From Cereibacter sphaeroides 2.4.1 (GTDB lineage Bacteria; Pseudomonadota; Alphaproteobacteria; Rhodobacterales; Rhodobacteraceae), in assembly GCF_000012905.2 (NCBI RefSeq), contig NC_007494.2, positions 180,001 through 212,000 on the forward strand: DNA of 32,000 nucleotides, given 5' to 3'. Positions 13,733 to 27,516 of this stretch are shown here, in pieces. Positions within the stretch are counted from its first letter, which is position 1, and every line of letters starts with the position of its first letter. The notes under the pieces were generated by a model. It did not search any database. It saw only the letters and a list, made by a program, of their open reading frames with translations, and had not been told where the DNA came from. Position numbers and translations under genes: made by a program.

Positions 13733-14074
13733 TCAGGCCGCGGCCTGAGGCTCGCGCCAGCGCTGCGCCTCGAGGAAGGGCGCGGGCAGCAGGAGCTTGT
13801 TCTCGACCCGCACCACCAGGGGGCGCATCTGGCGCGCGTAGGACTGCCACTCGGGCGAGGCCTGCAGCGCCTTCCTGCGCTCGTGCCGCTCGTCGAGGCT
13901 CTCATAGCCCCACATGTGCACGATCTGGTTCAACGGCCCGAAGTCGGTGTAATAATAACCCACCATCCGCCCGAGGATGCGGACCTGACACTCCATTCCC
14001 TCCTCTTCGTAGAGCTTCAGGAAGACCGGCACCTGCCCGGCATGGAGGGTGTAGATTCTTTCGTCGACGAACAT
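13733..14074 (-). CDS. NIPSNAP-family protein
   Basis: MFVDERIYTLHAGQVPVFLKLYEEEGMECQVRILGRMVGYYYTDFGPLNQIVHMWGYESLDERHERR shows the typical NIPSNAP dimeric alpha-beta barrel pattern. GGAG lies in the 9-nt spacer after the yeiH stop. Confidence 0.85.
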   Translation of the reverse strand: MFVDERIYTLHAGQVPVFLKLYEEEGMECQVRILGRMVGYYYTDFGPLNQIVHMWGYESLDERHERRKALQASPEWQSYARQMRPLVVRVENKLLLPAPFLEAQRWREPQAAA

Positions 14075-14083
14075 GATGTCTCC

Positions 14084-15082
14084 TCAGAACAGAAGGCCGA
14101 TGAGCCCGAGCGCATAGAGCGCGAGCAGAAGCGTGAGCGTGCAGATGAGCAGGATCGGCCGCCCGCCCACCGCCGCGAGGCGTCCGAGCGAGGTCTTGGT
14201 GCCGAGCGCGGCAATGGCCACCACGAGGCACCAGCGCGAGAAGGAGAGGAGCGCGACCTTCACCTCTTCGGGCACGAGACCGGCCGAGCCCAGCACGACG
14301 AGCGCCGCGAAGCCCAGCACGAAGAACGGAATGGGAAGCGCGCCGCCCTCGCCGCCGCGGCCCGTGCCCATGACGAGCGAGAGGCCGGTCACGATCGGGA
14401 TCAGCAGGGCCACCCGCAAGAGCTTGACGAAGACGGCGGTGTCGCCCGCCTCCTGCGAGACGGAATAGCCCGCGCCCACCACCTGCGCCACATCGTGGAT
14501 CGTGGCGCCGAAGAAGACGCCTGTCGCGACGTCGCCCAGCCCCAGCCGCTCGGTCAGGATCGGATAGAGGATCATCGCGACCGTGCTCAGGGCCGTCACG
14601 CCGATCACGGTGAAGACGGTCGCGCGCTCCGTCCCCTCGCGGCGGGGCAGGACGGAGGAGATCGCGAGCGCCGCCGAGGCGCCGCAGATGCCCACCGCGC
14701 CGCCGGCAAGGATGCCCATCTGCAGGGGCAGGCCCAGAAGGCGCGCGAGCAGCAGGCCCGAGCCGATCGTCACCGCCACACCCGAGACGGCGATGGCGAG
14801 CACCTCTGGGCCGGAAGCCATGACCTGCTGCACGGTGATGCCGAGGCCGAGGAGCGCCACCCCGAAGCGCAGGAGCTTCTTCGAGGCGAATTCGATGCCG
14901 GGAAGGCAGCGGCTGCCCGGCTCGCTCAGGAAGTTCAGCGCCATCCCGAGCAGAAGCGCCATCAGCATCACCGGGATGCCGTAATGCTCCGACAGGAAGG
15001 TCGCGGCGAGCGCGACCGTGACGGCGCACAGAAGGCCCGGCACGAGGAGCGTCACGGGCGAGGCGAGGGCGAGAACCGTCAT
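14084..15082 (-). CDS. yeiH: YeiH/UPF0324 family membrane protein (putative sulfate exporter, PSE, family)
   Basis: Matches my recollection of E. coli YeiH motifs: ICGASAALA (ICGAAAVLA), ATIHDVAQVVGAG (STVHEVAQVVAAG), KLLRV and AIAALGTKT. It is a polytopic membrane protein. The start overlaps the stop of the hydro-lyase beta subunit by 4 nt. Confidence 0.9.
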   Translation of the reverse strand: MTVLALASPVTLLVPGLLCAVTVALAATFLSEHYGIPVMLMALLLGMALNFLSEPGSRCLPGIEFASKKLLRFGVALLGLGITVQQVMASGPEVLAIAVSGVAVTIGSGLLLARLLGLPLQMGILAGGAVGICGASAALAISSVLPRREGTERATVFTVIGVTALSTVAMILYPILTERLGLGDVATGVFFGATIHDVAQVVGAGYSVSQEAGDTAVFVKLLRVALLIPIVTGLSLVMGTGRGGEGGALPIPFFVLGFAALVVLGSAGLVPEEVKVALLSFSRWCLVVAIAALGTKTSLGRLAAVGGRPILLICTLTLLLALYALGLIGLLF

Positions 15083-15759
15083 CCGATCAATTCATCGCTG
15101 CGGTCGTCGGTCTCGCCGAAGCGGCGCAGCACGGCGGGCTTCGTACCCTCGTAGACGCGGGCGAGGTTCTGCGAGACGCGCTCGTTCTCGCGCTCGAAGA
15201 GGCTGTTGCCCTCGAGGTCGCTCTCGACGATGAAGGGGCCCATGTTCTCGGCCTCGAGCACCCACATGGCCTGCGCGAGCCCCAGATCCTCGCGCCAGTG
15301 GAGCGCCTTCACCCGCTTGATGCCGCGTCCGAGCAGCGCGCCCGTGCCATAGCCCACGGTGGTGAGGTAGATCGCGCCGTTCGGCACGAAATGCTCGCGG
15401 TAGTCGGCCGAGGTCATGCCGCCCTTGCCGATGATGAGCTTCGCGCCCGACAGGCGGAACCACTCGCCGATCCACTTGCTGAAGCGGAACGAGGCGGTGG
15501 CGGTGACCGCGCCCATGGTGAAGGAGCCGTCGGGCTCGACCGTTGCCGCGGGCGAGCAGTGGAAGTTCGCGGCGCTCTCGCGCGGCAGATCCATGGGCAG
15601 CGCGTCACCCTGCTCGCAGGCGCGCATGTAGACGCCCTCGCGCGCGGTATAGATCAGCCCGTCCAGATGCACGACATCGCCGATGTGCAGCCGGGCCAGA
15701 TCCTCCCGCGAGGGGGTGGTGCTCAGGCGAATTCGTTTTGGTCCTGCGGAACGGTCCAT
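15079..15759 (-). CDS. Fe-S type hydro-lyase, beta subunit (tartrate/fumarate hydratase TtdB/FumA-C-terminal family)
   Basis: The start was moved to Met57 of track ORF 15079..15927, with GGGAG 8 nt upstream. LSTTPSREDLARLHIGDVVHLDGLIYTAREG and IIGKGGM...GAIYLTTVGYGTGALLG...LGLAQAMWVLEAENMGPFIVESDLEGNSLF match the TtdB/class-I fumarase C-domain pattern. Confidence 0.85.
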   Translation of the reverse strand: MDRSAGPKRIRLSTTPSREDLARLHIGDVVHLDGLIYTAREGVYMRACEQGDALPMDLPRESAANFHCSPAATVEPDGSFTMGAVTATASFRFSKWIGEWFRLSGAKLIIGKGGMTSADYREHFVPNGAIYLTTVGYGTGALLGRGIKRVKALHWREDLGLAQAMWVLEAENMGPFIVESDLEGNSLFERENERVSQNLARVYEGTKPAVLRRFGETDDRSDELIG

Positions 15760-16685
15760 TCCACTGTCTCCCGGCGTTGATAATCGGTGAACCAGTCGGG
15801 GTCGGTGCGGTATTCGACGCGACCGTCCCCCCAGAGGCGCGCGACGGCGCGGCGCGAGGAGAGGCAGAAGGCATGGACGCTCATCTGCATCCCGCCCGTG
15901 TGGCAGTAGCCCACCTCGATGTTGCAATCGACCACCATGGACTTGCCCACGAAGCCCATGGCGCCCATGCCGATCGAGTTGCCGAGTTCCTTCAGCTCGC
16001 CCTCGAGCGCCGCGATGCGCGGATCGGAGTTGCGGCTGCCCACGGTGCGCAGGCAGGCCGCGCGCTTGCCCAGCACCATGCAGGCATCCTTCGACCCGCC
16101 GAGCCCGATGCCGATGATGGCGGGCTGGCAGGCGAGGCCGCGCTTGCCGAAGGCCACGAGGCTGTCGAGGAAGAAGCGCCGGATCCCCTGGATCCCGTCC
16201 GAGGGGAAGAGCATCCGGTAATCGGTGCCGAAGAGCCCGCCCTTGTGCACGGTGATGAGGTCGATCCAGTCGCCGCCCGGCTCGAAGCCATATTCGATTT
16301 CGGGCGCGCCGATGCCCACATTGTTGTCGTGGTCGGTCCGCCAGAGCGGATGGACCCGGTTCGGCCGCAGGGGGATGTCATGCGTGGCGCGCGCCGTGGC
16401 ACGGCGCAGCGCCGCCTCGAGCGCGATGGGCCCGCCCTCGATATGCGCCTCGTTGCCCATCTTCACATACCAGCGCGGACAGCCCGTGTCGCCGCACATC
16501 GCGCGGCGGTCCTCCTTGGCCGCCTCGTAATTCTCGAGCATGGCCTGCAGCACGAAGGAGGAAAGGTCGCCATCCTCGACCGCCGCCGTGGCCTTCAGCC
16601 CGTCGAGATAATCTTCGGGAATTTCGATGGCGGCCTTTTCCATCAGCCGCTCGGCCGTCCGCTGGATCAGATCGAGTGAGATCAT
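15723..16685 (-). CDS. Fe-S type hydro-lyase, alpha subunit (TtdA/FumA-N-terminal family)
   Basis: MISLDLIQRTAERLMEKAAIEIPEDYL..., MCGDTGCP (the CxDTG cluster-ligand motif) and AIIGIGLGGSKDAC are visible. The gene has a 4-nt overlap with the flavoprotein gene upstream and a 37-nt out-of-frame overlap with the beta subunit gene. Confidence 0.88.
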   Translation of the reverse strand: MISLDLIQRTAERLMEKAAIEIPEDYLDGLKATAAVEDGDLSSFVLQAMLENYEAAKEDRRAMCGDTGCPRWYVKMGNEAHIEGGPIALEAALRRATARATHDIPLRPNRVHPLWRTDHDNNVGIGAPEIEYGFEPGGDWIDLITVHKGGLFGTDYRMLFPSDGIQGIRRFFLDSLVAFGKRGLACQPAIIGIGLGGSKDACMVLGKRAACLRTVGSRNSDPRIAALEGELKELGNSIGMGAMGFVGKSMVVDCNIEVGYCHTGGMQMSVHAFCLSSRRAVARLWGDGRVEYRTDPDWFTDYQRRETVEWTVPQDQNEFA

Positions 16686-18445
16686 TCCGCTGCCTTTACC
16701 AGTGTGGTGGGTTCATCGGCCGGCAGGATCGTCTCGCCGGGCCGCACGATGGTGAAGCGCACGGGCTCGCGCGTGACGGGCAGCTCGTCGCCCGACCGGC
16801 GCACCTGCGTGAAGTAGGAGGCGTCCAGATCGCCCGCCTCGGGGTGATCCTCGCGGTAATGCGCCCCGCGCGAATTCTCGCGCGCAAGGCCCGCCGTGGC
16901 GATGGCCTCGGATATGTCCACGAGCGAGCGCATGTTCAGCCAGTCGTGCCAGGTGAGGTTGAAGGCGAGGTTCGCGCCATCGACGCCGGTCTCGGCCAGT
17001 TCCGCGCCGATGGCCGCCACCCGCGTGAGGCCGCGCTCGAGGCCCGCGCCGGTGCGCAGGACCCCCACATCCTCCCACATGGCCTCCTGCAGCGCCTCGC
17101 GCAGCACTTGCACCTGGCCCGGCCGCTTCGAGAGCGGCGCCATGGCACGGTCGATCTCGGCCGCGAGCACTGCCTCGTCCGCGGGGCGCAGATGGCGGAT
17201 CGAGGCCACCTCGGCGCCCATCACGTCGCCCGCGATGCCGCCGAAGACGGTGGAGTTGGCGACACCGTTGCCGCCCAGCCGGTTCGCGCCATGCGCGCCG
17301 CCCGCATCCTCGCCCGCGACATGCAGCCCGTCGATCTCGGTGCGGGTGTCGGGATCCACCACGACGCCGCCCATGAAGTAATGCGCGGTGGGCACCACCT
17401 CGACCAGCCCGCCGGCCAGATCGAAGCCGCAGTCGGCGCAGCGCTTGACCATGCCCTTGAAGCGGCGGCGGACATCGTCGGGGCCGAGATGGGCCATCGA
17501 GATATAGACGCCGCCGTTCTCGGAGGTGTTGCTCTTGCGCATCTCGGCATAGATGCCGCGGCTGACCACGTCGCGCGTGGCCCGCTCGCCCGCCGCATCA
17601 TGGTCATACATGAAGCGGTGGCCGTGCCCGTTCAGCAGATGCCCGCCCGCGCCGCGCAGACCTTCCTCGAGGACGGTGCCCGTCATGCGCGTGCCCGGCC
17701 CCGCGAGTAGCCCGGTCGGGTGGAACTGCACCATCTCCATGTCGCGGAGCGGCAGGCCCAGACGCAGCGCCATCGACAGCCCGTCCATCGTCTTGTCGCC
17801 CGATGGCGTGTGATACTTGTACATGGTGGGCCCGCCGCCCGTGGCCATCAGCACCTTCTTCGCCCGCACGAAGCGGAAGCGGCCCGTGCGCATGTCGATG
17901 AAGAGCACGCCCGAGATCGCCCCGCCGCCCTCGGCCGGGATGAGGCCCACGGCGCGATGCTCCTGCAGCCGCTCGATCGGACGCGCGAGCACCTGCTCCA
18001 TCAGCCGGTTGATGATCTCGATGCCGGTCAGATCGCCCTTGTGGACAGTCCGGTCGGCGGTCTGGCCCGCGAAGGCCTTGTGGTGCAGCGTGCCGTCCGG
18101 GTTGCGGTCGAAGAAACAGCCGACCTCGTTCTCCAGTTCGCGCACCCGCGTCACCGCCTCCTGGCAGAGCCGCCAGGCCATGTCCTGATCGGGCAGCCAC
18201 TTGCCGCCGTGGATCGTGTCCATGAAGTGCCGCTCGACCGTGTCGCCCGCGCCGAGCGCCACATTATAGCCGCCCTGCACCATGCGCGTGCAGCCGCATT
18301 TCCCGAGAAGCCCCTTCACCGCAATGGTGATCCGGGTGCCCGTGGGCGCGCTCTGCTGGGCGTGGAGGGCGGCAAAGAGCCCCGCGCCGCCCGAGCCCAG
18401 GATCAGGATGTCGGTCTCCTGCCGTTCCAGCCGGTCGTGCTGCAT
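16682..18445 (-). CDS. Succinate dehydrogenase/fumarate reductase-family flavoprotein subunit (SdhA/FrdA-like, divergent)
   Basis: DILILGSGGAGLFAAL is the FAD dinucleotide fold. The other motifs are MVQFHPTG, EEGLRGAGGHLLN, PTAHYFMGG, GLHVAGEDAGGAHGANRLGGN and ENSRGAHYRED. The dicarboxylate-site His/Arg set is retained. The covalent-FAD His position aligns with Cys (see findings). Confidence 0.9.
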   Translation of the reverse strand: MQHDRLERQETDILILGSGGAGLFAALHAQQSAPTGTRITIAVKGLLGKCGCTRMVQGGYNVALGAGDTVERHFMDTIHGGKWLPDQDMAWRLCQEAVTRVRELENEVGCFFDRNPDGTLHHKAFAGQTADRTVHKGDLTGIEIINRLMEQVLARPIERLQEHRAVGLIPAEGGGAISGVLFIDMRTGRFRFVRAKKVLMATGGGPTMYKYHTPSGDKTMDGLSMALRLGLPLRDMEMVQFHPTGLLAGPGTRMTGTVLEEGLRGAGGHLLNGHGHRFMYDHDAAGERATRDVVSRGIYAEMRKSNTSENGGVYISMAHLGPDDVRRRFKGMVKRCADCGFDLAGGLVEVVPTAHYFMGGVVVDPDTRTEIDGLHVAGEDAGGAHGANRLGGNGVANSTVFGGIAGDVMGAEVASIRHLRPADEAVLAAEIDRAMAPLSKRPGQVQVLREALQEAMWEDVGVLRTGAGLERGLTRVAAIGAELAETGVDGANLAFNLTWHDWLNMRSLVDISEAIATAGLARENSRGAHYREDHPEAGDLDASYFTQVRRSGDELPVTREPVRFTIVRPGETILPADEPTTLVKAAE

Positions 18446-18446
18446 G

Positions 18447-18791
18447 TCAGATCGCCCTCAGAAGGAAGGTCGCGGCCACGAGGAAGGCGCCGGCGACGGT
18501 GGCGGCGGCCAGCGTCTTCTGCCGCCCGCTCCAGGGCAGCATCTCGAGCGCGAGAAGCCGGAGGCCGCCGAAGAAATGGGCGGCGAGGAGGAAGACGAGG
18601 CCGAACTCGGCCATCTTCACCAGGGGGTTCTGGGTCCAGAGTCCGAAGCTGTCGAACCCCTCGGGGTCGGTCAGCACCATGGCCAGCATGTAGAAATGCA
18701 CGGGCAGGAACAGCGCGAGGCCGAGCCCCGAGAGGCGGTGGACGAGATAGGCGAGCCACAGAGGGTGCGAGCGGTGGGCGAGCGAGATCAT
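18447..18791 (-). CDS. SDH/FRD-like hydrophobic membrane anchor subunit (SdhD/FrdD-like, 114 aa)
   Basis: This is the C-terminal 114 codons of track ORF 18447..19676: MISLAHRSHPLWLAYLVHRLSGLGLALFLPVHFYMLAMV...LVFLLAAHFFGGLRLL...AATVAGAFLVAATFLL, with three hydrophobic helices. The ATG at 18791 overlaps the upstream stop by 4 nt. The remainder of the track ORF overlaps sdhB/sdhC-like genes out of frame. Confidence 0.75.
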   Translation of the reverse strand: MISLAHRSHPLWLAYLVHRLSGLGLALFLPVHFYMLAMVLTDPEGFDSFGLWTQNPLVKMAEFGLVFLLAAHFFGGLRLLALEMLPWSGRQKTLAAATVAGAFLVAATFLLRAI

Positions 18792-19123
18792 GCGAGCGTC
18801 ACCGCATGAAGGGCGCGCAGGCCGAGGATCAGGAAGACCGCACCCACCGCGAGGGTGAAGAGGTCGAGGAGCGGGCGGTTGCGGAGCGTCAGCGTCTCGG
18901 CGAGGATCACCCGCAGCCCGATGGCCGCATGGATCGCCGCCGCCACGAGGAAAAGGCCGTAATAGAGCGCCCAGCCGAGGCTGCCCTGCGTCCGCGCAAG
19001 GATCTCGCCCGCGCTGATCCCGCCCTGCACCGCGTAGATCATCAGCGCCAGATGGCCCAGCACGAGGGGCGCCATCACCAGCGCCGAGAGCCGTTGCAGC
19101 ATGTAGAGTCGCAGATCGAGCAT
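18788..19123 (-). CDS. SDH/FRD-like hydrophobic membrane anchor subunit (SdhC/FrdC-like, 111 aa)
   Basis: MLDLRLYMLQRLSALVMAPLVLGHLALMIY...ALYYGLFLVAAAIHAAIGLRVIL...LFTLAVGAVFLILGL has three hydrophobic helices with candidate His ligands. It sits 3 nt after the Fe-S subunit stop. Confidence 0.75.
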   Translation of the reverse strand: MLDLRLYMLQRLSALVMAPLVLGHLALMIYAVQGGISAGEILARTQGSLGWALYYGLFLVAAAIHAAIGLRVILAETLTLRNRPLLDLFTLAVGAVFLILGLRALHAVTLA

Positions 19124-19126
19124 GGG

Positions 19127-19855
19127 TCAGCGTCCTTTGCGCCAGAAACTGCGGGCCGTCTCGCGCTTGAGGCCCGCGATGGAATCGAGCGGCGAAAGCT
19201 CGTTCGGGCAGTGGCGCGTGCAGCTTCCCTGGCTGTGGCAGTTGTGGCAGCCGCCCGAGACCGAGACGGCCGCCAGCACCTCGGCCCGGCCCGCGTCGCG
19301 CTCGTCGTTCACCACGCTCCAGGCGCGGTTGAGGGCGGCGGGCCCGAGATAATCCGGGTTGCCCGCCACGGTGTCGCAGGCGGCATAGCAGACCGAGCAG
19401 TTGATGCATTCGATGGCCCGGTCGGCGGTGCGCCGCGCCTCGGAAGCGGGATCGACCCGCGCCACTTCCTCGTGGCGCGTGCGGGCGGGGTGGAAGAGCC
19501 CTTCGGCCTTGACCCATTTCTCGAAGAACGGGTCCATGTCGGCCGCGAGATCCTTGATGACCGGCAGGTTGCGCAGCGGCCCGATGGTGAGCGCACCGCC
19601 CTGATCGACCTTGTTCACATGGGTCCGGCAGGTCCAGCGCGGCACCCCGTTCACCATCATGGCGCAGGAGCCGCACATGCCGACCCGGCAGGCATAGCGG
19701 TAGGTCAGCGTCGGATCGAGGTTCTGCTGGATCCAGGACACCACGTCGAGCACGGTCTGGCTGCCCTGCCGCGGCACCTCGAAGCCTTGGAACGCCCCGG
19801 TCGTGCCGGTCCCGCGCCAGATCGAGACGGACAGGGTCTGAGGGCCGTCAAGCAT
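19127..19855 (-). CDS. SDH/FRD-family iron-sulfur subunit (SdhB/FrdB-like)
   Basis: CRVGMCGSCAMMVNGVPRWTC is the 2Fe-2S motif, CINCSVCYAAC the 4Fe-4S motif and CHSQGSCTRHCP the 3Fe-4S-type CxxxxxCxxxCP motif. I chose the ATG at 19855, which has GGAGG 6 nt upstream. The track start at 19900 is a TTG inside the AT-rich promoter patch. Confidence 0.88.
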   Translation of the reverse strand: MLDGPQTLSVSIWRGTGTTGAFQGFEVPRQGSQTVLDVVSWIQQNLDPTLTYRYACRVGMCGSCAMMVNGVPRWTCRTHVNKVDQGGALTIGPLRNLPVIKDLAADMDPFFEKWVKAEGLFHPARTRHEEVARVDPASEARRTADRAIECINCSVCYAACDTVAGNPDYLGPAALNRAWSVVNDERDAGRAEVLAAVSVSGGCHNCHSQGSCTRHCPNELSPLDSIAGLKRETARSFWRKGR

Positions 19856-19921
19856 CGCTTTCCTCCGCGCTTTCGTCTTCCCCAGCTTATTGAAAGACAA
19901 ACTGAAGAAAAAACGAGAAAT

Positions 19922-19944: not shown

Positions 19945-19979
19945 CTTACAGAAGATCCGAGGGGGTGCTTTGAAACGCA

Positions 19980-21125: not shown

Positions 21126-22132
21126 CAGCTTCCCTCCTTGCCCGACATCGTGTCGAAGAAGATCTCGCTCCAGTCCTCGGCCGAGGTCTTGATGAGGCCG
21201 GACTCGCTCAGGAACTCGACGTAGGGCAGGGTCCGCTCCGGCGTGGTGGTCCAGACGGTCTGCTCGTCCCGGATCAGCGCCACGACCTCTTCCCGGCTCA
21301 GAGGGCTGCGCTCGGCCGCCATCCAGATCTCGGCCGCCTTCTCGGGGTTGGTGCTGATCAGCTCCATGCTCTCCTCGAGCGCCGCCATGAAGGCCTTGGT
21401 GATCTCGGGGTTCTCGGAGATGAACTTGTCGGCCGCCCAGACGACGGTGAAGGTGTGTGAGCCGCCGAGCACGTCGTAGCTGTCGAGCACCTTGTGGATG
21501 CCCTCGACCTTGGCCTCGAGGTTCTGGAACGGCGGCGAGCCGAAATGCGCCGTCACTTCGGACTGCCCGCCGGTCAGCGCGAGCTGCGCGTCGGGATGGC
21601 CCATCGAAACGGTGAAGGCATCCATCGCGGTGGCCTTGTCCGGTCCGAAGGCCTGTTTGGAGGCCATCTGCAGCGTCACGGCCTGGATCGAGGTCTTGAC
21701 GGCGGGCAGGGCGATCTTGTCGCCCTGGCTGAAGTCGGCCAGCGACTTCACCTCGGGGTTCGAGGTCATCAGATGCAGCGGCATCGAGGCCAGCGCCGCC
21801 ACGCCCTTGATCTTCAGGTTCTCGCGCGTGCGGGCCCAGATGGTGAAGAGCGGCCCCGTGCCGCCCGCCGCCAGATCGAGGTTGCCCGACAGCAGCGCCT
21901 CGTTCATCCCCGAGCCGCCGGTGAAGCGCAGCCATTCGGTCGTGATCTCGTGGCCCGAGGCGGCCGCGTGCTTCTCGAGCAGGTCCAGCTCCTCGACCAG
22001 CGTGAGCGGCAGGTAACCGATGCCGAACTGCTTGGCCAAGCGCACCGTCGAGACCTCGGCCAGCGCGGGCCAGGCCGTCGAGGCGAGCAGAAGCGCCGCC
22101 GCCCAAGGCGTCAGTGTCTTGTGGATCTTCAT
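21125..22132 (-). CDS. ABC transporter periplasmic substrate-binding protein, NitT/TauT family, copy 2 (paralogue)
   Basis: MKIHKTLTPWAAALLLASTAWPALA is the signal peptide, followed by VRLAKQFGIGYLPLTLV...GDKIALPAVKTSIQAVTLQM...EVTAHFGSPPF. It is collinear with copy 1 along its full length at modest identity. GGGAGGA lies 6 nt upstream of the ATG. Confidence 0.9.
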   Translation of the reverse strand: MKIHKTLTPWAAALLLASTAWPALAEVSTVRLAKQFGIGYLPLTLVEELDLLEKHAAASGHEITTEWLRFTGGSGMNEALLSGNLDLAAGGTGPLFTIWARTRENLKIKGVAALASMPLHLMTSNPEVKSLADFSQGDKIALPAVKTSIQAVTLQMASKQAFGPDKATAMDAFTVSMGHPDAQLALTGGQSEVTAHFGSPPFQNLEAKVEGIHKVLDSYDVLGGSHTFTVVWAADKFISENPEITKAFMAALEESMELISTNPEKAAEIWMAAERSPLSREEVVALIRDEQTVWTTTPERTLPYVEFLSESGLIKTSAEDWSEIFFDTMSGKEGS

Positions 22133-22280
22133 GGATGGTCCTCCCTGTGCCGCCGTTTCGCGGCTTTGCTGGCCGGGCCCGGCCCTGCGGCCGGTCCCTT
22201 GCGCGCGCGCCGTCCCTGCGGGCCTGCGGATGCGGCCGTGGCAGGGACGGGTGCCGGGGCCTCCCCGCCCCGGCGCCCTG
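22133..22280 (-). other. Structured GC-rich intercistronic spacer between the permease and binding-protein genes
   Basis: There are two clear stem-loops: cggggc/gccccg (22255-22272) and ccgtccctgc/gcagggacgg (22210-22250, with a 21-nt partly self-pairing loop). There is also the palindrome ccgggcccgg (22173-22182). All other junctions in this operon are 50 nt or shorter. Confidence 0.45.
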
Positions 22281-23192
22281 TCAGTGCTGCACCCCCCAGC
22301 GCTGGATCGTGCGCTTCTCGATAGTGGCGAAGATCAGGTTCTCGACCACGAGGCCGATGATGATGACCGTGAGAAGGCCGGCGAAGACGTTCGAGATCTC
22401 GAGCAGGTTCTTGTTCTCGAAGATGAACCAGCCGAGACCGCCCGAGCCCGAACTCACGCCGAAGACGAGCTCGGCCGCGATCAGCGTCCGCCAGGCGAAG
22501 GCCCAGCCGATCTTGAGGCCGGTCAGGATGCTCGGGAAGGCCGCCGGGATCAGGATCTTGGTGATGAAGCCCCATCCCTTCAGCCCGTAGTTGCGCCCCA
22601 CCATCTTCAGGGTCCGGCTCACGCCGAGGAAGCCCGAATGGGTGTTGAGCGCGATGGCCCAGGTCACCGAATGGACCAGCACGAAGACGAGGCTCATGTT
22701 GCCCAGCCCGAACCAGATCAGCGCCAGCGGCAGAAGGGCGATGGCGGGCAGGGGGTTGAACATCGAGGTCATGATCTCGAGGAAGTCCCGCCCGATCCGC
22801 GAGGCGATGGCCAGCGCCGTCAGCACCGCGGCCAGCAGGATCCCCACCGCATAGCCCGTCACCAGCACCTTGAGCGAGGCGAGCGCCCGCATCAGCAGTC
22901 CGCCGTTCAGCACGCTGTCCCAGAGCGCCGCGATGGTCTGCGAGAAGGAGGGGAACAGCAGGTCGTTGTTCAGCGTGCGCCCGTAGATCTCCCAGGCGAG
23001 GGCGAGGACGACGAGGATCAGCCCCTTGCGCAGCACCGGCACGTTGTAGAGCGCCTCGGCCCAGGTCAGCCGCGCCTGAATGACGCTGATCTCGTCCTCC
23101 GAGGTGGGGGCGCGGTCGTCGTGGTAGATCTCGGCCCGGACGGGCGTGGCGGGGCCCGCGTCGCGCGGCATGGTCGCGGTCATATTAAGCAT
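22281..23192 (-). CDS. ABC transporter permease (TauC/SsuC-like, binding-protein-dependent transport family)
   Basis: A polytopic membrane protein (LILVVLALAWEIY..., ALASLKVLVTGYAVGILLAAVL, IAAELVF...). GAGGAGGAGG lies 6 nt upstream of the first ATG, and there is an 8-nt overlap with the ATPase gene. Confidence 0.88.
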   Translation of the reverse strand: MLNMTATMPRDAGPATPVRAEIYHDDRAPTSEDEISVIQARLTWAEALYNVPVLRKGLILVVLALAWEIYGRTLNNDLLFPSFSQTIAALWDSVLNGGLLMRALASLKVLVTGYAVGILLAAVLTALAIASRIGRDFLEIMTSMFNPLPAIALLPLALIWFGLGNMSLVFVLVHSVTWAIALNTHSGFLGVSRTLKMVGRNYGLKGWGFITKILIPAAFPSILTGLKIGWAFAWRTLIAAELVFGVSSGSGGLGWFIFENKNLLEISNVFAGLLTVIIIGLVVENLIFATIEKRTIQRWGVQH

Positions 23193-23961
23193 GCTCGGCC
23201 TCCTCCTCGTCCGGCTCGTTCACGAACAGCATCTCGTGGATGCGCTTCTCCAGCCGCGCCGCCTCGATGGGGTCGGTGGTGCTGTTGATCTCGGCCTTCA
23301 CCCGGCCGGGGTGGGGCGAGAGCAGCAGGATGCGGTTGCCGATCTTGATCGCCTCGGCGATCGAGTGGGTGACGAAGAGGACGGTGAAATGCGTCTCCTC
23401 CCAGAGGGCCAGCAGCTCGTCCTGCATCCGCCGCCGTGTGAGCGCATCGAGGGCGGCGAAGGGCTCGTCCATCAGCAGGATGTCGGGCTCCATCGCCATG
23501 CCGCGCGCGATGGCCACGCGCTGCTTCATGCCGCCCGACAGCATGTGGGGATGGCTGTTGGCGAATTTCTCGAGGCCGACCTTGCAGACGTAATGCATCG
23601 CCCGCTCTTCGGCCTCGGCACGCGAGAGCCGTTTCGCGGTCTGAAGCGCGAAGGCCACGTTCTGCTTCACCGTCTTCCACGGCAGAAGCTGGTCGAACTC
23701 CTGAAACACCATCATCCGGTCGGGGCCGGGCTCCTTGACCTTCTGGCCCTTCAGCCGGATCTCGCCCTCGCAGGGCGTGATATAGCCGCCCACCGCCTTC
23801 TGCAGCGTGGACTTGCCGCAGCCCGACGGCCCGAGAAGGATGAAGCGATCCCCCTGATGCACGTCGAAATCGACCCGATAGGTGGCCGTGATCAGATGCT
23901 GAGGGGTCTTGTACTGGATCGTGACCCCCCGGACCGACAGCAAGGGCTCGCTGTGTGTCAT
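23185..23961 (-). CDS. ABC transporter ATP-binding protein (TauB/SsuB/NrtD-like)
   Basis: This is the C-terminal 258 codons of track ORF 23185..24501, starting MTHSEPLLSVRGVTIQY. Motifs: Walker A GPSGCGKST, MVFQEFDQLLPWKTV, signature LSGGMKQRV and Walker B ILLMDEPF. GGAGGAAAC immediately precedes the ATG at 23961. Confidence 0.92.
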   Translation of the reverse strand: MTHSEPLLSVRGVTIQYKTPQHLITATYRVDFDVHQGDRFILLGPSGCGKSTLQKAVGGYITPCEGEIRLKGQKVKEPGPDRMMVFQEFDQLLPWKTVKQNVAFALQTAKRLSRAEAEERAMHYVCKVGLEKFANSHPHMLSGGMKQRVAIARGMAMEPDILLMDEPFAALDALTRRRMQDELLALWEETHFTVLFVTHSIAEAIKIGNRILLLSPHPGRVKAEINSTTDPIEAARLEKRIHEMLFVNEPDEEEAEHA

Positions 23962-24011: not shown

Positions 24012-25664
24012 TCATCCGTCGGGCTGCGCCGTCTCCGCCGCTTCCGGCTCCTCTCCGGAAGGGGCTGCGCGGCCCTCGATCTCCACATTCACCAGAACCA
24101 CTCCGCCGGCGGCGAAGGCGCGCCGCAGGGCGCCCCGAAGCTCGGACCGGCATGTCACATGGGCGCCCGTGCCCCCGAGGGCCGCGGCGACCAGATCGTA
24201 ACGGGCGCCCGAAAGCTCGCATCCATGGACGCGGTCGGGGCCGAATTCGCGAAGCTGCAGCAGATGCTCGGCATTCCAGCGGCGGTCGTTGCCGATCACC
24301 ACCACGAAGGCCGCGCCCGCGCGCACCGCCGTCTCGAGTTCTGCCAGATGAAAGCCGATGCTGCCATCCCCGCTGGCGACCGCGATACGGGCCTCGGGGC
24401 AGGCGAGGCTTGCCGCCACCGCATGCCCGAGCGCCCCGCCGATCCCGCCTGCGGGCCCGTTGATGAGCCGTCGGTCGGCCTGCACGAGGGCCTGCGCCCA
24501 CTGGCCGAACTCGCCGCCGTCCGAGACGAGGATCGTCTCGCCCCCGTCCGCGCCCAGAACGTCGGACAGGGTGGCGCAGAGCAGCCCGGAATCGATCGGC
24601 CCCGGCGTCTCATCCGGTGCGGGCGGCGCGGGCCGCCGTCCGAAGCGGGCGCACCAGTCGCGGCGCGCCGCGTCGCAGCCGGCCTCGGGCAGGTCCGCCA
24701 GCCCCTGCGCCAGCGCCCGCGGATCAGCCGCGATCAGGCGGCGCAGCTTCGGGCCGAGGTTGCGGACGGCCTCTTCGCCCGCCCCGTCCTCGGGCTCGAC
24801 CACGATCCAGCCGCAGTCCGCGGAGGTGGCCCGACCGAAGTCGAGCATGTAATCGACGGACTTGCCGAGCGAGATCACGAGATCCGCCTCGGCCATCCGC
24901 TGCCGCAGGCCGGGCTGGGCCGGATCGCGCAGGCCGCGCGGGCTCTCCAGCGCCACGACCGGAACGGCGAGCCTCTGACCGAGCCTGCGGGCCAGATCGC
25001 CGCCGCGGGTCGGGCTGAAGAGGCCGCTCGTCACGATCAGCGGGCGGCGCGCTTCCGCGATCTCGGCCGCGAGCCTCGCGGTCTCGCGCTCGCTGGCCGG
25101 CACCGTGGCGGCTGCGGTCCGGCTGCTGCTCGGCACACCCTCGGCGCGCTGGGTCAGAAGATCCTGCGGCAGCGCCAGATGCACCGGCCCCGGCCGCCCC
25201 GCCCGGGCCAGCGTCAGCGCCGCCCTGAGCTCGTGCGCCAGCGTCGGCACCGAGCCCACGCGCGCGGAATGTTTGGTGAAGGGCGCGGTCGCGGCCACCT
25301 GATCGAGGGTCTGGAACGCCCCCATCCCGTCCTGCGCCCGGGGCGAGTCCCCGCTAAGGAGCAGCAGCGGCGTCTCGGACTGGCGCGCGCTCATCAGCGG
25401 CCCCACCGCATTGGCAGCCCCCGGGCCCGCCGTGACCAGCGCCACGCCCACTTCGCCCGTAAGCTGCGCCCAGCCCTCGGCCATGAAAACGGCGGCCGCC
25501 TCGTGACGCACATGGACGATCTCGATCCCGGAGCCCAGACAGGCGTCGTAGAGCGGCATGATCTGGTTGCCCGACAGGCTGAAGATCCGGGTCACCCCGC
25601 AATCGACCAGCGTGGAGACGAGAAGATCCGCTCCGCGAAGCAGGAAGGGGCGGCGGTCGTTCAT
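24012..25664 (-). CDS. Thiamine-diphosphate-dependent enzyme (acetolactate synthase large subunit / oxalyl-CoA decarboxylase-like superfamily; specific reaction unknown)
   Basis: GADLLVSTLVDCGVTRIFSLSGNQIMPLYDA...VHVRHEAAAVFMAEGWAQLTG..GVALVTAGPGAANAV is the TPP-enzyme N-domain. The C-terminal GDGSIGF...NDRRWNA is a TPP-binding GDG...N motif. I chose the start ATG at 25664, which has GGAGG 10 nt upstream. The ATG at 25673 is too close to the SD, and the upstream extension to 25760 has low GC3. Confidence 0.85.
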   Translation of the reverse strand: MNDRRPFLLRGADLLVSTLVDCGVTRIFSLSGNQIMPLYDACLGSGIEIVHVRHEAAAVFMAEGWAQLTGEVGVALVTAGPGAANAVGPLMSARQSETPLLLLSGDSPRAQDGMGAFQTLDQVAATAPFTKHSARVGSVPTLAHELRAALTLARAGRPGPVHLALPQDLLTQRAEGVPSSSRTAAATVPASERETARLAAEIAEARRPLIVTSGLFSPTRGGDLARRLGQRLAVPVVALESPRGLRDPAQPGLRQRMAEADLVISLGKSVDYMLDFGRATSADCGWIVVEPEDGAGEEAVRNLGPKLRRLIAADPRALAQGLADLPEAGCDAARRDWCARFGRRPAPPAPDETPGPIDSGLLCATLSDVLGADGGETILVSDGGEFGQWAQALVQADRRLINGPAGGIGGALGHAVAASLACPEARIAVASGDGSIGFHLAELETAVRAGAAFVVVIGNDRRWNAEHLLQLREFGPDRVHGCELSGARYDLVAAALGGTGAHVTCRSELRGALRRAFAAGGVVLVNVEIEGRAAPSGEEPEAAETAQPDG

Positions 25665-25759
25665 CGGGATCATGCCTCCGGCTGGTGCACGGCCATCGGC
25701 CGCGATCTGGTCTCGAACGAAGGGGGCGGAGCGGTTCGGCGAGGCTCCACCTGTTCCCA

Positions 25760-25788: not shown

Positions 25789-25845
25789 AAAAACAAATAA
25801 AAGCTGACATGTGATGTAAGAAAATCTGACGAAAGAGAGGGGCGG

Positions 25846-26742
25846 ATGTCGATCCGGATGCTCCGCACGCTGATCGCGGTCAGCGAGCACGGGACCTTCA
25901 GCGCGGCGGCGGAGTCGGTGTTCCTGACCCATGCCGCGGTCAGCCAGCAGATGCAGAAGCTGGAAGAGGATTTCGGCATCCGCCTCTTCGACCGCTCGCG
26001 GCGCAGCCCCGAACTGACGCCTCTGGGGCAGGCCTTCGTCAGCCGCGCGCGCGACGTGGTGGCGGCCTACGACGGGCTCGCGCTCGCGGTGACGGGAGAG
26101 GGCAGCGTCGAGGGCACGATCCGGCTCGGCGCCGTGCCCACCACGCTGATCGGGCTCATCCCGGTCGCGGTGACGCTGCTCAAGCGCGACTTTCCGGCGC
26201 TCAGCGTGACCATCGTGCCGGGGCTGACCACGAACCTCCTCCAGCAGGTCGAGCGCGGCTCGCTCGATGCGGCGGTGCTCACGCGGCCCCATGTGGTGCC
26301 GCGGCGGATGGTCTGGAACCATGTGGCCGACGAGCCGCTCGAGCTTCTGGCCTCGCACGACACGGCGAGCGACGACCCGCTGGAACTGCTGGCCACGCAG
26401 CCCTTCATCCGCTTCTCGCGGCAAGCGGTGGTGGGCGGGCTGATCGAGGCCTGGCTCCAGCAGCGCCGGATCGAGGTGCGCGAGAGCATGGAGCTCGAGA
26501 GCCTCGAGACGATCTCGAGCATGGTGCTGGCGAACCTCGGCGTCTCCATCGCGCCGCGTCCCTGTGTCGATCACATCAACCCTCTGCCGCTCAAGCACAT
26601 CCCGCTCGACGCGGGCGGGCTCCGACGCCAGCTCGGCCTCAGCAGCCGGGCCGACAATGCGCGCCCGCGCGTCCTGCGCATCCTGCACGAGAAGCTGGTG
26701 CAGGCGGTGGGCATCGGCGTGCTCGACCCTTCTTCCCTCTGA
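25846..26742 (+). CDS. LysR-family transcriptional regulator
   Basis: MSIRMLRTLIAVSEHGTFSAAAESVFLTHAAVSQQMQKLEEDFGIRLFDRSRRSPELTPLG is the classic LysR winged-HTH N-terminus. The length is 298 aa. The gene is divergent from the TPP-enzyme operon. GAGAGGGG lies upstream of the ATG. Confidence 0.93.
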   Translation: MSIRMLRTLIAVSEHGTFSAAAESVFLTHAAVSQQMQKLEEDFGIRLFDRSRRSPELTPLGQAFVSRARDVVAAYDGLALAVTGEGSVEGTIRLGAVPTTLIGLIPVAVTLLKRDFPALSVTIVPGLTTNLLQQVERGSLDAAVLTRPHVVPRRMVWNHVADEPLELLASHDTASDDPLELLATQPFIRFSRQAVVGGLIEAWLQQRRIEVRESMELESLETISSMVLANLGVSIAPRPCVDHINPLPLKHIPLDAGGLRRQLGLSSRADNARPRVLRILHEKLVQAVGIGVLDPSSL

Positions 26743-26754
26743 CGGAGCCCTTTC

Positions 26755-27516
26755 GTGACCCTCGACTTCCTCCTTCTCTTCGGGCTCGGCGCGGCGGCGG
26801 GCGGGTTCGTCAACGGGCTCGCGGGCTTCGGCACGGCGCTCTTCGCGCTGGCCTTCTGGCTCGAGATCCTGCCGCCGGCGCAGGCCGTGGCGATCTCGGC
26901 GGTCATGTCGGTGACGAGCGGGCTGCCCGGCCTCTGGGCCGTGCGCGAGGCGATCTCGCGCCAGCCGCGGCGCATCCTGCGCTTCGTGCTGCCCGCGCTC
27001 GTGGCGGTCCCGCTCGGGGTGCTCTCGCTTCAATATGTCGAGGCGGGGTGGCTGAAGCTGGTTATCGGTGGCTTCATGGGGCTTTACGGGCTCTTCTTCG
27101 CCTTCCGCCGCACCTTGCCCGCGCTCGATCTGCGAATGCCCGTGGCCGATATGGCGGTGGGCTTCTCCGGCGGCTTTCTCGGAGGCGCGGCCTCGCTCTC
27201 GGGGGCGCTGCCCACCATGTGGTGCACGCTCCATGCCTGGACGCGGCAGGAGCAGCGCGGGGTTATGCAGCCCTTCAACGTCACCATCCTCGGCGCGACG
27301 GTGGTGCTCCTCGCGTTCCAGGGCGCCTACACCGCCGAGACGCTCCTCCTGATCGCGGGCGCATTGCCGGTGACGATGCTCGCGGCACAGGTGGGCGTCC
27401 GGCTCTTCGCGCGGCTCACCGACGCGCAGTTCAAGCGCCTGCTGATCCTGCTCCTCTTCGTCTCGGGGGCGAGCATCCTCGTGCAGGAACTGGGCAAGGC
27501 GCTGATGGCGCTCTGA
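26755..27516 (+). CDS. TSUP / TauE-SafE family membrane protein (putative sulfite or organosulfonate anion transporter)
   Basis: LLFGLGAAAGGFVNGLAGFGTALFALAF... and the second-half repeat GFSGGFLGGAASLSG fit the DUF81/TSUP internal-repeat architecture. The start is GTG at 26755, 12 nt after the LysR stop, with GGAG 7 nt upstream. The gene is probably co-transcribed with the LysR gene. Confidence 0.85.
   Translation: MTLDFLLLFGLGAAAGGFVNGLAGFGTALFALAFWLEILPPAQAVAISAVMSVTSGLPGLWAVREAISRQPRRILRFVLPALVAVPLGVLSLQYVEAGWLKLVIGGFMGLYGLFFAFRRTLPALDLRMPVADMAVGFSGGFLGGAASLSGALPTMWCTLHAWTRQEQRGVMQPFNVTILGATVVLLAFQGAYTAETLLLIAGALPVTMLAAQVGVRLFARLTDAQFKRLLILLLFVSGASILVQELGKALMAL

Follow-up and report, generated by a model that had tools for sequence, protein, structure and literature searches.

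A widespread succinate dehydrogenase-like and fumarase-like gene core in Cereibacter sphaeroides 2.4.1 and its possible role in organosulfonate catabolism

Which pathway is served by thirteen closely spaced minus-strand genes of Cereibacter sphaeroides 2.4.1 that combine a membrane-bound enzyme resembling succinate dehydrogenase (SDH), a fumarase-like Fe-S hydro-lyase, an ATP-binding cassette (ABC) importer and a thiamine diphosphate (TPP) enzyme? The genes lie on a 32,000-nucleotide stretch of contig NC_007494.2 (positions 180,001 to 212,000; this whole stretch is called the window, and coordinates are counted from its first letter). A scan of open reading frames (ORFs) and a list of in-frame starts place them between 13733 and 25673 or 25760, with a divergent plus-strand pair encoding a LysR-type regulator (25846-26742) and a TauE-family transporter (26755-27516). 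We find that two well-known enzyme families occur here in a functional variant that is widespread and systematically misannotated. The island probably serves organosulfonate catabolism with release of sulfite. The reading that we favour, at a probability of about 0.5, is that of an organosulfonate catabolic island in whose core the Krebs-cycle segment from succinate to malate recurs as a paralogous 'sulfo-version'; for 3-sulfopropanoate as the specific substrate the odds appear balanced.

Altered active sites in the SDH-like and hydro-lyase proteins

Gene models built from in-frame starts, together with NCBIfam and Pfam calls, bear out the fifteen genes, their families and all twelve junction distances described in the initial annotation. 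Its SdhC and SdhD labels were swapped, as NCBIfam gives a cytochrome b556 (SdhC type) for 18447-18791 and the SdhD type for 18788-19123. None of the island's proteins reaches a curated NCBIfam equivalog cut-off, so that no specific name can be assigned to any island protein. The core consists of the following genes.

19127..19855, minus strand: SdhB-like Fe-S subunit (NCBIfam dhsB, 183.7 bits against a cut-off of 88; three Cys cluster motifs)
18788..19123, minus strand: SdhD-type membrane anchor (NCBIfam succ_dehyd_anc and Pfam Sdh_cyt; heme-ligand motif H-x3-G-x-R)
18447..18791, minus strand: SdhC-type cytochrome b556 anchor (NCBIfam TIGR02970, 56.2 bits against a cut-off of 52.3; Pfam Sdh_cyt; heme-ligand motif)
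16682..18445, minus strand: SdhA-like flavoprotein (ABA80763.1), proposed 3-sulfopropanoate:quinone dehydrogenase (Pfam FAD_binding_2, 235 bits; Succ_DH_flav_C, 95.5 bits)
15723..16685, minus strand: hydro-lyase alpha, TtdA/FumA type (ABA80762.1), proposed sulfoacrylate hydratase (passes the NCBIfam subfamily-domain model TIGR00722 with 204 bits)
15079..15759, minus strand: hydro-lyase beta, TtdB/FumA-C type (alignment to 7XKY_B and 5DNI)

The best equivalog match of the SdhA-like flavoprotein is the thiol:fumarate reductase TfrA (458 bits, cut-off 718), followed by sdhA_frdA_Gneg (403, cut-off 567) and nadB (334, cut-off 453). The complex shares with complex II (SdhCDAB or FrdABCD) its four subunits, the flavoprotein domains, the three Cys motifs and two small anchors with a heme-ligand His; the anchor motifs, HAAIGLR in the SdhD type and HFFGGLR in the SdhC type, are conserved across the family. 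By contrast, its gene order is B-D-C-A, its flavoprotein scores only 250-290 bits against solved SDH and fumarate reductase (FRD) flavoproteins, and in other genera the module is encoded on plasmids, beside sulfonate genes. In C. sphaeroides it is probably on chromosome 2, to which we take the accession range of ABA80763.1 and ABA80762.1 to belong; the housekeeping sdhCDAB genes are presumably on chromosome 1.

The alignment to E. coli FrdA places Cys52 at the position of His44 (His45 in SdhA), which links flavin adenine dinucleotide (FAD), and Glu260 at that of Thr244 in the active-site loop, a loop that is 6 residues longer in the SdhA-like protein. The protein keeps the substrate residues His232, Arg287, His355 and Arg390 (FrdA numbering), and its position 57, equivalent to FrdA Glu49 and SdhA Gln50, is Gln, as in SdhA. 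The motif GKCGCTRMVQGG, a His-less GxxGCTRMVQGG, and the motif TVLEEGLRG are present in 85/85 family members examined. Residues 50-57 and 259-268 of the SdhA-like protein hold the Cys-for-His and Glu-for-Thr changes. A complex II with 8-alpha-S-cysteinyl-FAD at Cys52 is one possibility raised by this alignment.

Two other functions were considered for the flavoprotein. A NadB-like amino-acid oxidase acting on cysteate was set aside, the NadB-specific Glu121 position being Phe-Ala-Gly, as in Frd and Sdh. Dimethylsulfoniopropionate or another cationic succinate analogue, which would account for Glu260, was rejected, since the module is tied to sulfite genes and is frequent in Methylobacterium, Paraburkholderia and Paracoccus from soil.

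Hydro-lyase alpha does not reach the fumarate hydratase (198.8 bits, cut-off 276) or TtdA (143, cut-off 365) equivalog, and hydro-lyase beta likewise remains under its cut-offs (116.8 against 269, and 106 against 264 for TtdB). With class-I fumarase (M. jannaschii, 7XKY) and TtdAB the protein has in common the two-subunit alpha/beta fold, the cluster Cys, catalytic Asp62 and Thr80 and the Arg/Lys contacts: in the alignment, equivalents of Cys60, Cys182, Cys269, Asp62 and Arg102 are kept in alpha, and those of Arg32, catalytic Thr80, Arg84 and Lys104 in beta. It differs from them in Gly for Gln61 (CQDTG to CGDTG), Ala for Thr81 (TASFR) and KGGLF in place of KGXGS (or AGGGC). A motif census found the altered motifs in most loci, TATASFRF being present in 66/91 beta-type ORFs where the canonical type is GTTTSxRM. 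Two preprints report that the substrate-binding residues, Gln61 and Thr81 among them, do not vary in any class-I fumarase or L-tartrate dehydratase, that replacing either of these two abolishes fumarase activity of the M. jannaschii enzyme, and that KGXGS is invariant in fumarases, mutation of its Gly147 being inactivating in the same enzyme. According to these preprints, the fumarase Gln acts together with two Arg to hold the C4 carboxylate, the distal one. As Gln61 and Thr81 are missing while the Fe-S ligands and catalytic residues are kept, we count the hydro-lyase as not a fumarase. Gly and Ala at the distal pocket would fit a bulkier sulfonate in the distal site.

Conservation of the core and its sulfur-related neighbours

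To what extent is this gene set conserved? A one-genome-per-species scan with an alignment of five SdhA-like orthologues gave at least 600 matching stretches (594 of the 600 listed encode relatives), from which 80 loci at 67-79% identity were kept; the module was common in marine Roseobacter-group, SAR116 and Granulosicoccus genomes. A protein search returned at least 8000 relatives at E <= 1e-100. Neighbourhoods were surveyed in 84 loci and the window by tblastn with the 15 window proteins and by unbiased ORF clustering; unless stated otherwise, counts refer to the 55 loci with full flanks, and to a distance of 10 kb for marker genes.

The genes for hydro-lyase alpha and beta stand beside those for SdhB, the anchors and SdhA in 54/55 loci from Alpha-, Beta- and Gammaproteobacteria. 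A LysR gene, usually paired with a TauE gene, is found near the core in 38/55, and a TauE-family gene in 37/55. The conserved core is the set of SDH-like and hydro-lyase genes, usually with the LysR-TauE pair. The transporter is interchangeable, being of the tripartite tricarboxylate (TTT) type in 26 of the 55, or else of the ABC (SsuA-type, 6/55) or tripartite ATP-independent periplasmic (TRAP) type. Orthologues of the TPP enzyme (43-51% identity) lie beside the core in 15/55 loci from distant taxa, and NIPSNAP and YeiH genes in seven and five; the ABC importer, TPP, YeiH and NIPSNAP genes are recurring accessories, each at 9-27% of loci. The proposal that all thirteen genes form one unit holds for the SDH-like and hydro-lyase genes; the whole string is not conserved, the ABC and TPP genes being accessory.

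Related modules occur on plasmids of Paracoccus versutus, Pseudorhizobium banfieldiae, Sulfitobacter sp. THAF37 and Methylobacterium radiotolerans, those in the plasmid collection having 74-79% DNA identity to the window. Because the modules of relatives are plasmid-borne, these are accessory and not housekeeping genes. Together with the missing FAD-linking His and the lack of any equivalog-level score, this agrees with the earlier description of the locus as an uncharacterised catabolic island and not the housekeeping SDH. In databases the SdhA-like protein is named 'L-aspartate oxidase', 'FAD-binding protein' or 'fumarate reductase flavoprotein subunit', and the hydro-lyase goes under 'fumarate hydratase' or under 'L(+)-tartrate dehydratase alpha subunit'. 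Thousands of entries are probably misnamed in this way.

Variant clusters in Methylobacterium and Burkholderiaceae carry, beside an orthologous SdhA, a hydro-lyase that is not orthologous (28-32% identity) and has the canonical motifs of fumarase. As a second hydro-lyase has been recruited independently, desaturation followed by hydration appears to be the selected function. In these clusters (L002, which is M. radiotolerans pMRAD01, 13193-15133, and L073, L081, L083 and L084 in the survey numbering) the SdhA-like protein is an orthologue at 64-69% identity, and the canonical-type hydro-lyase is encoded between the anchors and SdhA. It has CQDTG and GTTTSxRM, with KGSGS in 3/5, and the surroundings are of the SuyAB/SlcC/ComC type in 3/5.

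Organosulfonate genes predominate by far among the neighbours in other genomes. At least one sulfur marker gene was found within 10 kb of the core in 41/55 loci, which strongly backs the suggestion of the initial annotation that the substrate is 'possibly sulfonated'; none was found in 14/55. The markers include SuyAB-like genes (UxaA pairs) and HpsN-like genes (4/55 each), Ldh_2 (ComC-type) and 2-hydroxyacid dehydrogenase (SlcC-type) genes (6/55 each), and, among all 84 loci, genes beside the core for an HpsO-type short-chain dehydrogenase (8/84) and an HpsP-type zinc alcohol dehydrogenase (9/84). A SoxC/SorA-like sulfite dehydrogenase gene (5/55) is part of the operon in the three Marivita loci (L024, L026, L034), where it comes immediately after the hydro-lyase. 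The pathways of sulfolactate and 2,3-dihydroxypropane-1-sulfonate (DHPS) catabolism (HpsNOP, SlcC/ComC, SuyAB and SuyZ; SlcD-ComDE-Xsc) are frequent neighbours of the module and have in common with the island the end products sulfite and sulfate and the exporter families, TauE and YeiH-type. By contrast, none of their enzymes is homologous to the SDH-like or hydro-lyase proteins, and none is encoded in the window.

These counts bear directly on a sulfur-free route, in which the module would be a second SDH and fumarase, or a tartrate, malate or methylsuccinate/mesaconate pathway, with the transporters as unrelated neighbours. Such a route would suit the database names fumarate reductase, fumarate hydratase and L(+)-tartrate dehydratase and the 14/55 loci without a sulfur marker. 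It would also suit the Krebs-cycle reading given by the authors of a proteomic study of Paracoccus wurundjeri to an 11-gene cluster (MDP0926751-61) that is annotated 'fumarate and tartrate metabolism' and includes a TauE homologue. Nine proteins of that cluster were induced on sulfofucose, a sugar degraded via sulfolactate to sulfite; with 11 genes and TauE as the seventh, the cluster matches the usual module layout and is its probable counterpart. However, residues essential to fumarase and invariant in tartrate dehydratase are missing from the hydro-lyase, the FAD-linking His and loop Thr of SDH are missing from the flavoprotein, whose scores stay under the equivalog cut-offs, sulfonate or sulfite genes occur at 41/55 loci, and the LysR-TauE pair is the commonest partner. 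We consider a sulfur-free route very unlikely, and the tartrate, malate or mesaconate alternative put forward earlier is disfavoured.

Sulfolactate itself has to be considered as the substrate. In such a route the complex-II-like enzyme would make enol-sulfopyruvate and the hydro-lyase, working as a tartrate dehydratase would in reverse, would hydrate the sulfonate carbon to an alpha-hydroxysulfonate that breaks down to sulfite and tartronate semialdehyde, independently of SuyAB; the oxidation of malate to enol-oxaloacetate by SDH is a model for the first step. The module lies beside sulfolactate-forming genes, without SuyAB, in P. versutus (HpsNOP, SlcC/ComC, TTT) and Pseudorhizobium, and the P. 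wurundjeri cluster, if it is the module, was induced on a sulfolactate-generating substrate. Moreover, the missing histidyl-FAD fits a low-potential hydroxy-acid couple, Glu260 could bind the hydroxyl, and the commonest transporter partner is of the TTT type, to which SlcHFG belongs, a system that is said, in work attributed to Denger and colleagues in 2009, to carry sulfolactate. Roseovarius nubinhibens ISM carries the module (L016: SdhA at 76% identity, its own TTT system and LysR-TauE) and yet reportedly, from the same work of 2009, has a separate, characterised sulfolactate pathway made up of SlcHFG, SlcD, ComDE, Xsc and CuyA. In addition, SuyAB adjoins the module in several loci, where such a route would be redundant, and the hydro-lyase is remodelled at its distal site, as would fit a sulfonate placed distally with respect to the carbon that is hydrated. 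A sulfolactate-consuming route is, in our judgement, unlikely.

Other neighbours point to the metabolism of C3 sulfonates upstream of 3-sulfopropanoate. Some loci encode an iron alcohol dehydrogenase resembling 4-hydroxybutyrate dehydrogenase and an aldehyde dehydrogenase of the succinate-semialdehyde dehydrogenase (SSADH) type, and the Pseudorhizobium locus has SSADH-type and sulfolactaldehyde-reductase-like genes with a TRAP system. Enzymes of these kinds would be expected to form 3-sulfopropanoate from 3-hydroxypropanesulfonate or homotaurine. It should also be noted that Paracoccus pantotrophus has an SdhA-like gene, and that its strain NKNCYSA is reported to degrade homotaurine.

Nitroreductase-family (10/55) and glutathione S-transferase (GST; 9/55) genes also flank the core. 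They would suit a detoxification of 3-nitropropionate, a succinate analogue that is oxidised by SDH: the SDH-like enzyme would make 3-nitroacrylate, its hydration would give nitrite and malonate semialdehyde, for which methylmalonate/malonate-semialdehyde dehydrogenase genes are present at two loci, and TauE would export the anion. This is nevertheless extremely unlikely. Among the neighbours are genes for sulfite dehydrogenase, SuyAB, SsuA-type binding proteins and the metabolism of DHPS and sulfolactate; the nitroreductase match is weak (107 bits against a cut-off of 223); and the module is abundant in marine pelagic taxa, a setting for which we know of no source of 3-nitropropionate.

As a separate observation, the nitroreductase gene (250-300 aa, divergent, often with a GST gene) lies just upstream of SdhB in loci L007, L020, L022, L025, L028, L031, L032, L039-L042 and L044. 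It is the commonest divergent SdhB neighbour in Roseobacter-group loci, is absent from the window, and may protect against an electrophilic enoate intermediate.

Spacers, accessory genes and other features of the window

How do the remaining genes of the island relate to the core? They and the two longer spacers are listed here.

25846..26742, plus strand: LysR-type regulator, divergent from the TPP and ABC genes (NCBIfam LysR-family matches, all under equivalog cut-offs)
26755..27516, plus strand: TauE/SafE (TSUP) anion transporter, presumed sulfite exporter (Pfam PF01925, 105.7 bits against a gathering score of 32.6)
24012..25673, minus strand: TPP enzyme of the acetolactate-synthase/2-hydroxyacyl-CoA-lyase superfamily, accessory (Pfam TPP_enzyme_N, _M and _C)
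23185..23961, minus strand: ABC ATPase, NitT/TauT family (NCBIfam ntrCD and taurine ATPase models, under cut-off; taurine ATPase 206 against 357)
22281..23192, minus strand: ABC permease, NitT/TauT family (NCBIfam SaoP-, TauC- and SsuC-type matches, under cut-off; TauC 80 against 342)
22133..22280, minus strand: structured G+C-rich spacer of 148 nt between permease and SBP2 (several hairpins; minimum free energy -92 against -78.4 kcal/mol in shuffles, z = -3.74)
21125..22132, minus strand: binding protein SBP2, SsuA/NMT1 type (NCBIfam SsuA_fam, 78.9 bits, cut-off 163.5; Pfam NMT1)
20133..21125, minus strand: binding protein SBP1, SsuA/NMT1 type, paralogue of SBP2 (NCBIfam SsuA_fam, 72 bits, cut-off 163.5)
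19856..20132, minus strand: 277-nt spacer between SBP1 and SdhB (terminator-like hairpin, then an AT-rich stretch; fold z = -3.94 against shuffles)
14084..15082, minus strand: YeiH-family membrane protein, putative sulfate/sulfite exporter, accessory (Pfam PF03601, Cons_hypoth698, 219.9 bits against 24.5; NCBIfam 'YeiH family putative sulfate export transporter')
13733..14074, minus strand: NIPSNAP-family small protein, accessory (Pfam PF07978, 97.9 bits)

The genes are closely coupled apart from the two spacers. From the TPP gene, for which a start at 25673 or 25664 is more probable than one at 25760, the junctions are a 50-nt gap to the ATPase gene, an 8-nt overlap of ATPase and permease, the 148-nt spacer, a 1-nt overlap of SBP2 and SBP1, and the 277-nt gap before SdhB. 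Those 3' of SdhB are, in order, a 3-nt gap, a 4-nt overlap, a 1-nt gap and a 4-nt overlap, followed by a 37-nt overlap of hydro-lyase alpha and beta (provided that beta starts at ATG 15759), a 4-nt overlap of hydro-lyase beta with YeiH and a 9-nt gap to NIPSNAP; LysR and TauE are 12 nt apart. A strong terminator hairpin (13684-13711) lies 3' of the NIPSNAP gene. The structure of the 148-nt spacer and the hairpin and AT-rich island of the 277-nt gap, both noted in the initial annotation, are borne out by the folds and the sequence, and an Rfam search of the structured spacers returned no known RNA family. The 148-nt spacer may serve to stabilise the mRNA of the binding proteins downstream of it, or may itself be a repetitive extragenic element.

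Upstream of SdhB, the 277-nt spacer holds a perfect T-N11-A palindrome, TCTGAC-N11-GTCAGA, at 19922-19944, and the 12-mer GTCAGAATTTCT at 19916-19927. Within the window this 12-mer, GTCAGAWTTTCT, occurs at two sites only, the 277-nt spacer and the LysR-TPP spacer (25819-25830), and the stretches 19916-19944 and 25804-25830 are candidate LysR operators. The 277-nt spacer probably holds an internal promoter of the SDH-like operon together with its LysR operator, and the thirteen genes probably form at least two transcription units. The hairpin, the AT-rich stretch, the palindrome and the common 12-mer weakly suggest two such units under one LysR regulator. No LysR box (TCTGAC-like T-N11-A palindrome) was conserved in common upstream of SdhB and LysR in the related loci, and the 12-mer is not conserved in other genomes, so that the operator proposal draws on the window itself.

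The same spacer raises the alternative that the ABC/TPP block and the SDH/hydro-lyase block are independent and merely adjacent operons, which would be compatible with any of the substrates considered here. A terminator-like hairpin and a separate promoter region do lie between SBP1 and SdhB, and most related loci use a TTT transporter and are without TPP and ABC genes. Against this, in two Methylobacterium loci, where both binding proteins have orthologues, the genes for the TPP enzyme and the binding proteins are interspersed among those for the SDH-like and hydro-lyase proteins, and the 12-mer is common to both promoter spacers and occurs nowhere else in the window. The recurrence of TPP orthologues within 10 kb of the core at 15/55 loci of distant taxa, with SsuA-type ABC genes at 6/55, and the interleaving in Methylobacterium indicate that the ABC/TPP block is not a chance neighbour. 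We regard independent operons as fairly unlikely. Both the ABC and the TPP genes are non-randomly associated with the core, and the two Methylobacterium loci have both.

The TPP enzyme scores 151.3 bits against the Xsc model PRK07525 of NCBIfam (cut-off 620) and 253.5 bits against the 2-hydroxyacyl-CoA lyase/oxalyl-CoA decarboxylase equivalog (cut-off 600). Its nearest solved structures are actinobacterial 2-hydroxyacyl-CoA lyase, benzaldehyde lyase and acetolactate synthase, all weak at about 200 bits or less, and the window encodes no CoA-transferase or CoA-ligase, the substrate-activating partner for an enzyme of the 2-hydroxyacyl-CoA lyase type. Judged by its sequence, the enzyme is neither Xsc nor of the ComDE type. 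We propose as its substrate a 2-oxo acid or aldehyde further down the route, for example 3-sulfopyruvate, and the most economical role would be sulfopyruvate decarboxylation, possibly with loss of sulfite. A Frc/Oxc-like pairing of a family-III CoA-transferase with this TPP enzyme was also considered and rejected; the two genes are found together at one locus only (L010).

The ABC ATPase has an 83% identical orthologue adjoining the module in P. versutus, and SBP2 has orthologues at 60-66% identity in P. versutus and M. radiotolerans. A separate orthologue of SBP1 (55% identity) is encoded in the M. radiotolerans cluster, which indicates that SBP1 and SBP2 are distinct conserved lineages. Like TauABC and SsuABC the importer belongs to the NitT/TauT family, and its binding proteins match SsuA_fam; unlike them, it scores under all the cut-offs and has two tandem binding proteins of separate orthologous lineages. 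No solved structure was detectable by sequence. On these scores the ABC proteins can be placed in the NitT/TauT family only, and cannot be assigned to TauABC or SsuABC.

The island lies between a sodium:solute symporter gene and an ABC-2/HlyD exporter. As these genes look unrelated to it, the limits of the island are roughly those first described. The symporter ORF (SSF family, 11440-13668, plus strand) has in its longest reading an Arg/Gly-rich N-terminal extension of about 230 residues; the true start is probably near residue 165-200, and the gene converges on the NIPSNAP terminator. Elsewhere in the window, and unrelated to the island, are a 631-aa ORF without a Pfam match (1096-2991, plus strand), which adjoins a Ser/Thr-kinase-like ORF, and a 787-aa protein (3423-5786, minus strand) with a Sde182 nucleoside-hydrolase-like domain, DUF642 and CBM60.

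A proposed 3-sulfopropanoate route

Which reactions could unite these genes? Succinate, fumarate, malate and oxaloacetate have as carboxylate-sulfonate analogues 3-sulfopropanoate, sulfoacrylate, 3-sulfolactate and 3-sulfopyruvate, and gamma-aminobutyrate (GABA), succinate semialdehyde and 4-hydroxybutyrate have homotaurine, 3-sulfopropanal and 3-hydroxypropanesulfonate. 3-Sulfopropanoate and 3-hydroxypropanesulfonate are end products of the bacterial fermentation of sulfoquinovose and DHPS. Since the module fits the succinate-type series and several of the neighbour sets fit the GABA-type series, we propose a 3-sulfopropanoate route. The SsuA-type ABC system with its two binding proteins would import a C3 sulfonate, most likely 3-sulfopropanoate, which could originate from homotaurine, 3-hydroxypropanesulfonate or the fermentation of DHPS or sulfoquinovose. 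The membrane-bound heme-b complex-II-like enzyme would desaturate it to 3-sulfoacrylate, with transfer of the electrons to quinone, and the two-subunit [4Fe-4S] hydro-lyase would hydrate sulfoacrylate to 3-sulfolactate, its remodelled, enlarged distal site holding the sulfonate. Sulfolactate would then be desulfonated via sulfopyruvate and the TPP enzyme, or by SuyAB or Xsc encoded elsewhere (in other genomes, beside the module). Sulfite or sulfate would leave through TauE and YeiH, and the LysR regulator probably controls both promoters. Of the scheme put forward in the initial annotation, the order of oxidation, hydration and anion export remains the best reading, and 3-sulfopropanoate, a carboxylate-sulfonate, is a more likely substrate than a substituted dicarboxylate. 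The gene content, the conservation of the core, its association with sulfonate and sulfite genes and the altered active-site residues are shown by the sequences; the substrate, the direction of the reaction, the regiochemistry of the hydration and the part played by the TPP enzyme are inferred from them. In its full form, which we put forward tentatively and at slightly less than even odds, the proposal is that an unrecognised, widespread branch of complex II with cysteinyl-linked or non-covalent FAD and a remodelled Fe-S hydratase make up a quinone-linked 'sulfo-Krebs' shunt that mineralises 3-sulfopropanoate and, by way of it, homotaurine and 3-hydroxypropanesulfonate, which both arise in the turnover of sulfoquinovose and DHPS.

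Our literature search found no published aerobic 3-sulfopropanoate pathway or gene set. One paper (PMC11489063) states that no bacterial degradation of 3-sulfopropionate has been reported save in a thesis on R. nubinhibens ISM (J. Mayer, Konstanz), which, as cited there, describes the conversion of homotaurine via 3-sulfopropanoate and sulfoacrylate to sulfolactate. The intermediates cited from this thesis are the expected products of the SDH-like and fumarase-like pair, and the strain has the module; by contrast, there are no published genes or enzymes for those steps. We infer that the module is the pathway of that thesis. A 2026 review describes the mechanism of 3-sulfopropionate degradation as still unclear (Bilophila wadsworthia). 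Searches on sulfosuccinate desulfonation, on R. sphaeroides with tartrate dehydratase and on sphaeroides with C3 sulfonates gave nothing at the gene level.

The direction of the proposed reactions could be reversed. In that case sulfolactate would be dehydrated to sulfoacrylate, which would be reduced with quinol as in fumarate respiration, and 3-sulfopropanoate would be exported by TauE. A TauE protein has indeed been proposed as a 3-sulfopropionate exporter in Enterococcus gilvus; in addition, fumarate reductases tolerate non-covalent FAD, the best NCBIfam match of the SdhA-like protein is TfrA, and the module adjoins sulfolactate-forming genes. However, the hosts are mostly aerobic and use ubiquinone, uptake systems are co-encoded, and sulfite release is implied by the sulfite dehydrogenase inside the Marivita operons and by adjacent SuyAB. 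The anchors of the succinate:quinone reductase type with their heme-ligand motif, and Gln57 as in SdhA, count for the oxidative direction. The reductive direction is therefore very doubtful.

A substituted C4 dicarboxylate would require a different chemistry: sulfosuccinate would be oxidised to sulfofumarate and hydrated to an unstable 2-hydroxy-2-sulfosuccinate that decays to oxaloacetate and sulfite, or the substrate would be a sulfinate such as 3-sulfinopropanoate. The flavoprotein keeps all four carboxylate-binding residues, the loss of Gln61 and Thr81 could equally accommodate an extra C3 substituent, the sulfite exporters are conserved, and Sulfitobacter THAF37 has a gene for a 3-sulfinopropanoyl-CoA desulfinase at a distance of about 10 kb from the module. 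On the other hand, the neighbours are genes for C3 sulfonates (DHPS, sulfolactate and the gamma-hydroxybutyrate/succinate-semialdehyde type) and not C4 genes, and oxaloacetate as the product leaves the TPP enzyme without a role. Sulfosuccinate has, to our knowledge, no abundant natural source, yet the module is common in marine groups. We hold a C4 substrate to be quite unlikely.

Several points weigh against the 3-sulfopropanoate route as we propose it. Histidyl-FAD is normally required for the desaturation of a succinate-type C-C bond. That it is missing is the main biochemical objection and fits a substrate of lower potential, such as sulfolactate, or a reductase, unless Cys52 links FAD; Glu260, at the substrate-contacting Thr position, is likewise an odd partner for a sulfonate. 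The canonical fumarase active site of the variant clusters weakens the argument from an enlarged pocket. The sulfite route is incomplete in the window, which has no SuyAB and no sulfolactate dehydrogenase, an enzyme that the sulfopyruvate role of the TPP enzyme needs. The family-III CoA-transferase gene inside some operons, including that of R. nubinhibens, and the methylmalonate/malonate-semialdehyde-type dehydrogenase genes in two loci hint at other chemistry. The 12-mer of the two spacers was chosen post hoc, after both sites were known. As for the literature, the thesis is known second-hand and may assign other genes, and a search seeded with the Paracoccus onubensis orthologue returned no P. 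wurundjeri-labelled entry, which leaves the cluster of that species a putative counterpart of the module.

Some of these neighbours also affect the last step of the proposed 3-sulfopropanoate route. The CoA-transferase, semialdehyde dehydrogenase and nitroreductase-GST partners give room for CoA-dependent branches or for a sulfite-releasing hydration. They leave room for the boldest version of the proposal, in which water would be added at the sulfonate-bearing carbon and spontaneous C-S cleavage would give malonate semialdehyde and sulfite with no sulfo-lyase. The CoA-transferase gene (about 12700-13870 in L016; also in L010, L013, L018 and L021) lies between or after the hydro-lyase genes, and its best matches are formyl-CoA and succinate-glutarate CoA-transferases.

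Taken together, these results make the module a candidate gene set for aerobic 3-sulfopropanoate mineralisation, which, if true, would fill a recognised gap in the organosulfur cycle. The module is present in at least some 600 species-level genomes, including abundant marine groups, and the organosulfur step would be testable in the genetically tractable C. sphaeroides 2.4.1. If the proposal is true, it would correct the naming of thousands of database entries, which are called L-aspartate oxidase or fumarate reductase in the one case and fumarate hydratase or tartrate dehydratase in the other, and a sulfite-releasing hydration at the sulfonate carbon would be a new desulfonation mechanism. 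The family also offers two natural experiments, one on the purpose of the histidyl-FAD link and active-site Thr of complex II, and the other on the distal pocket of class-I fumarases as a determinant of substrate specificity.

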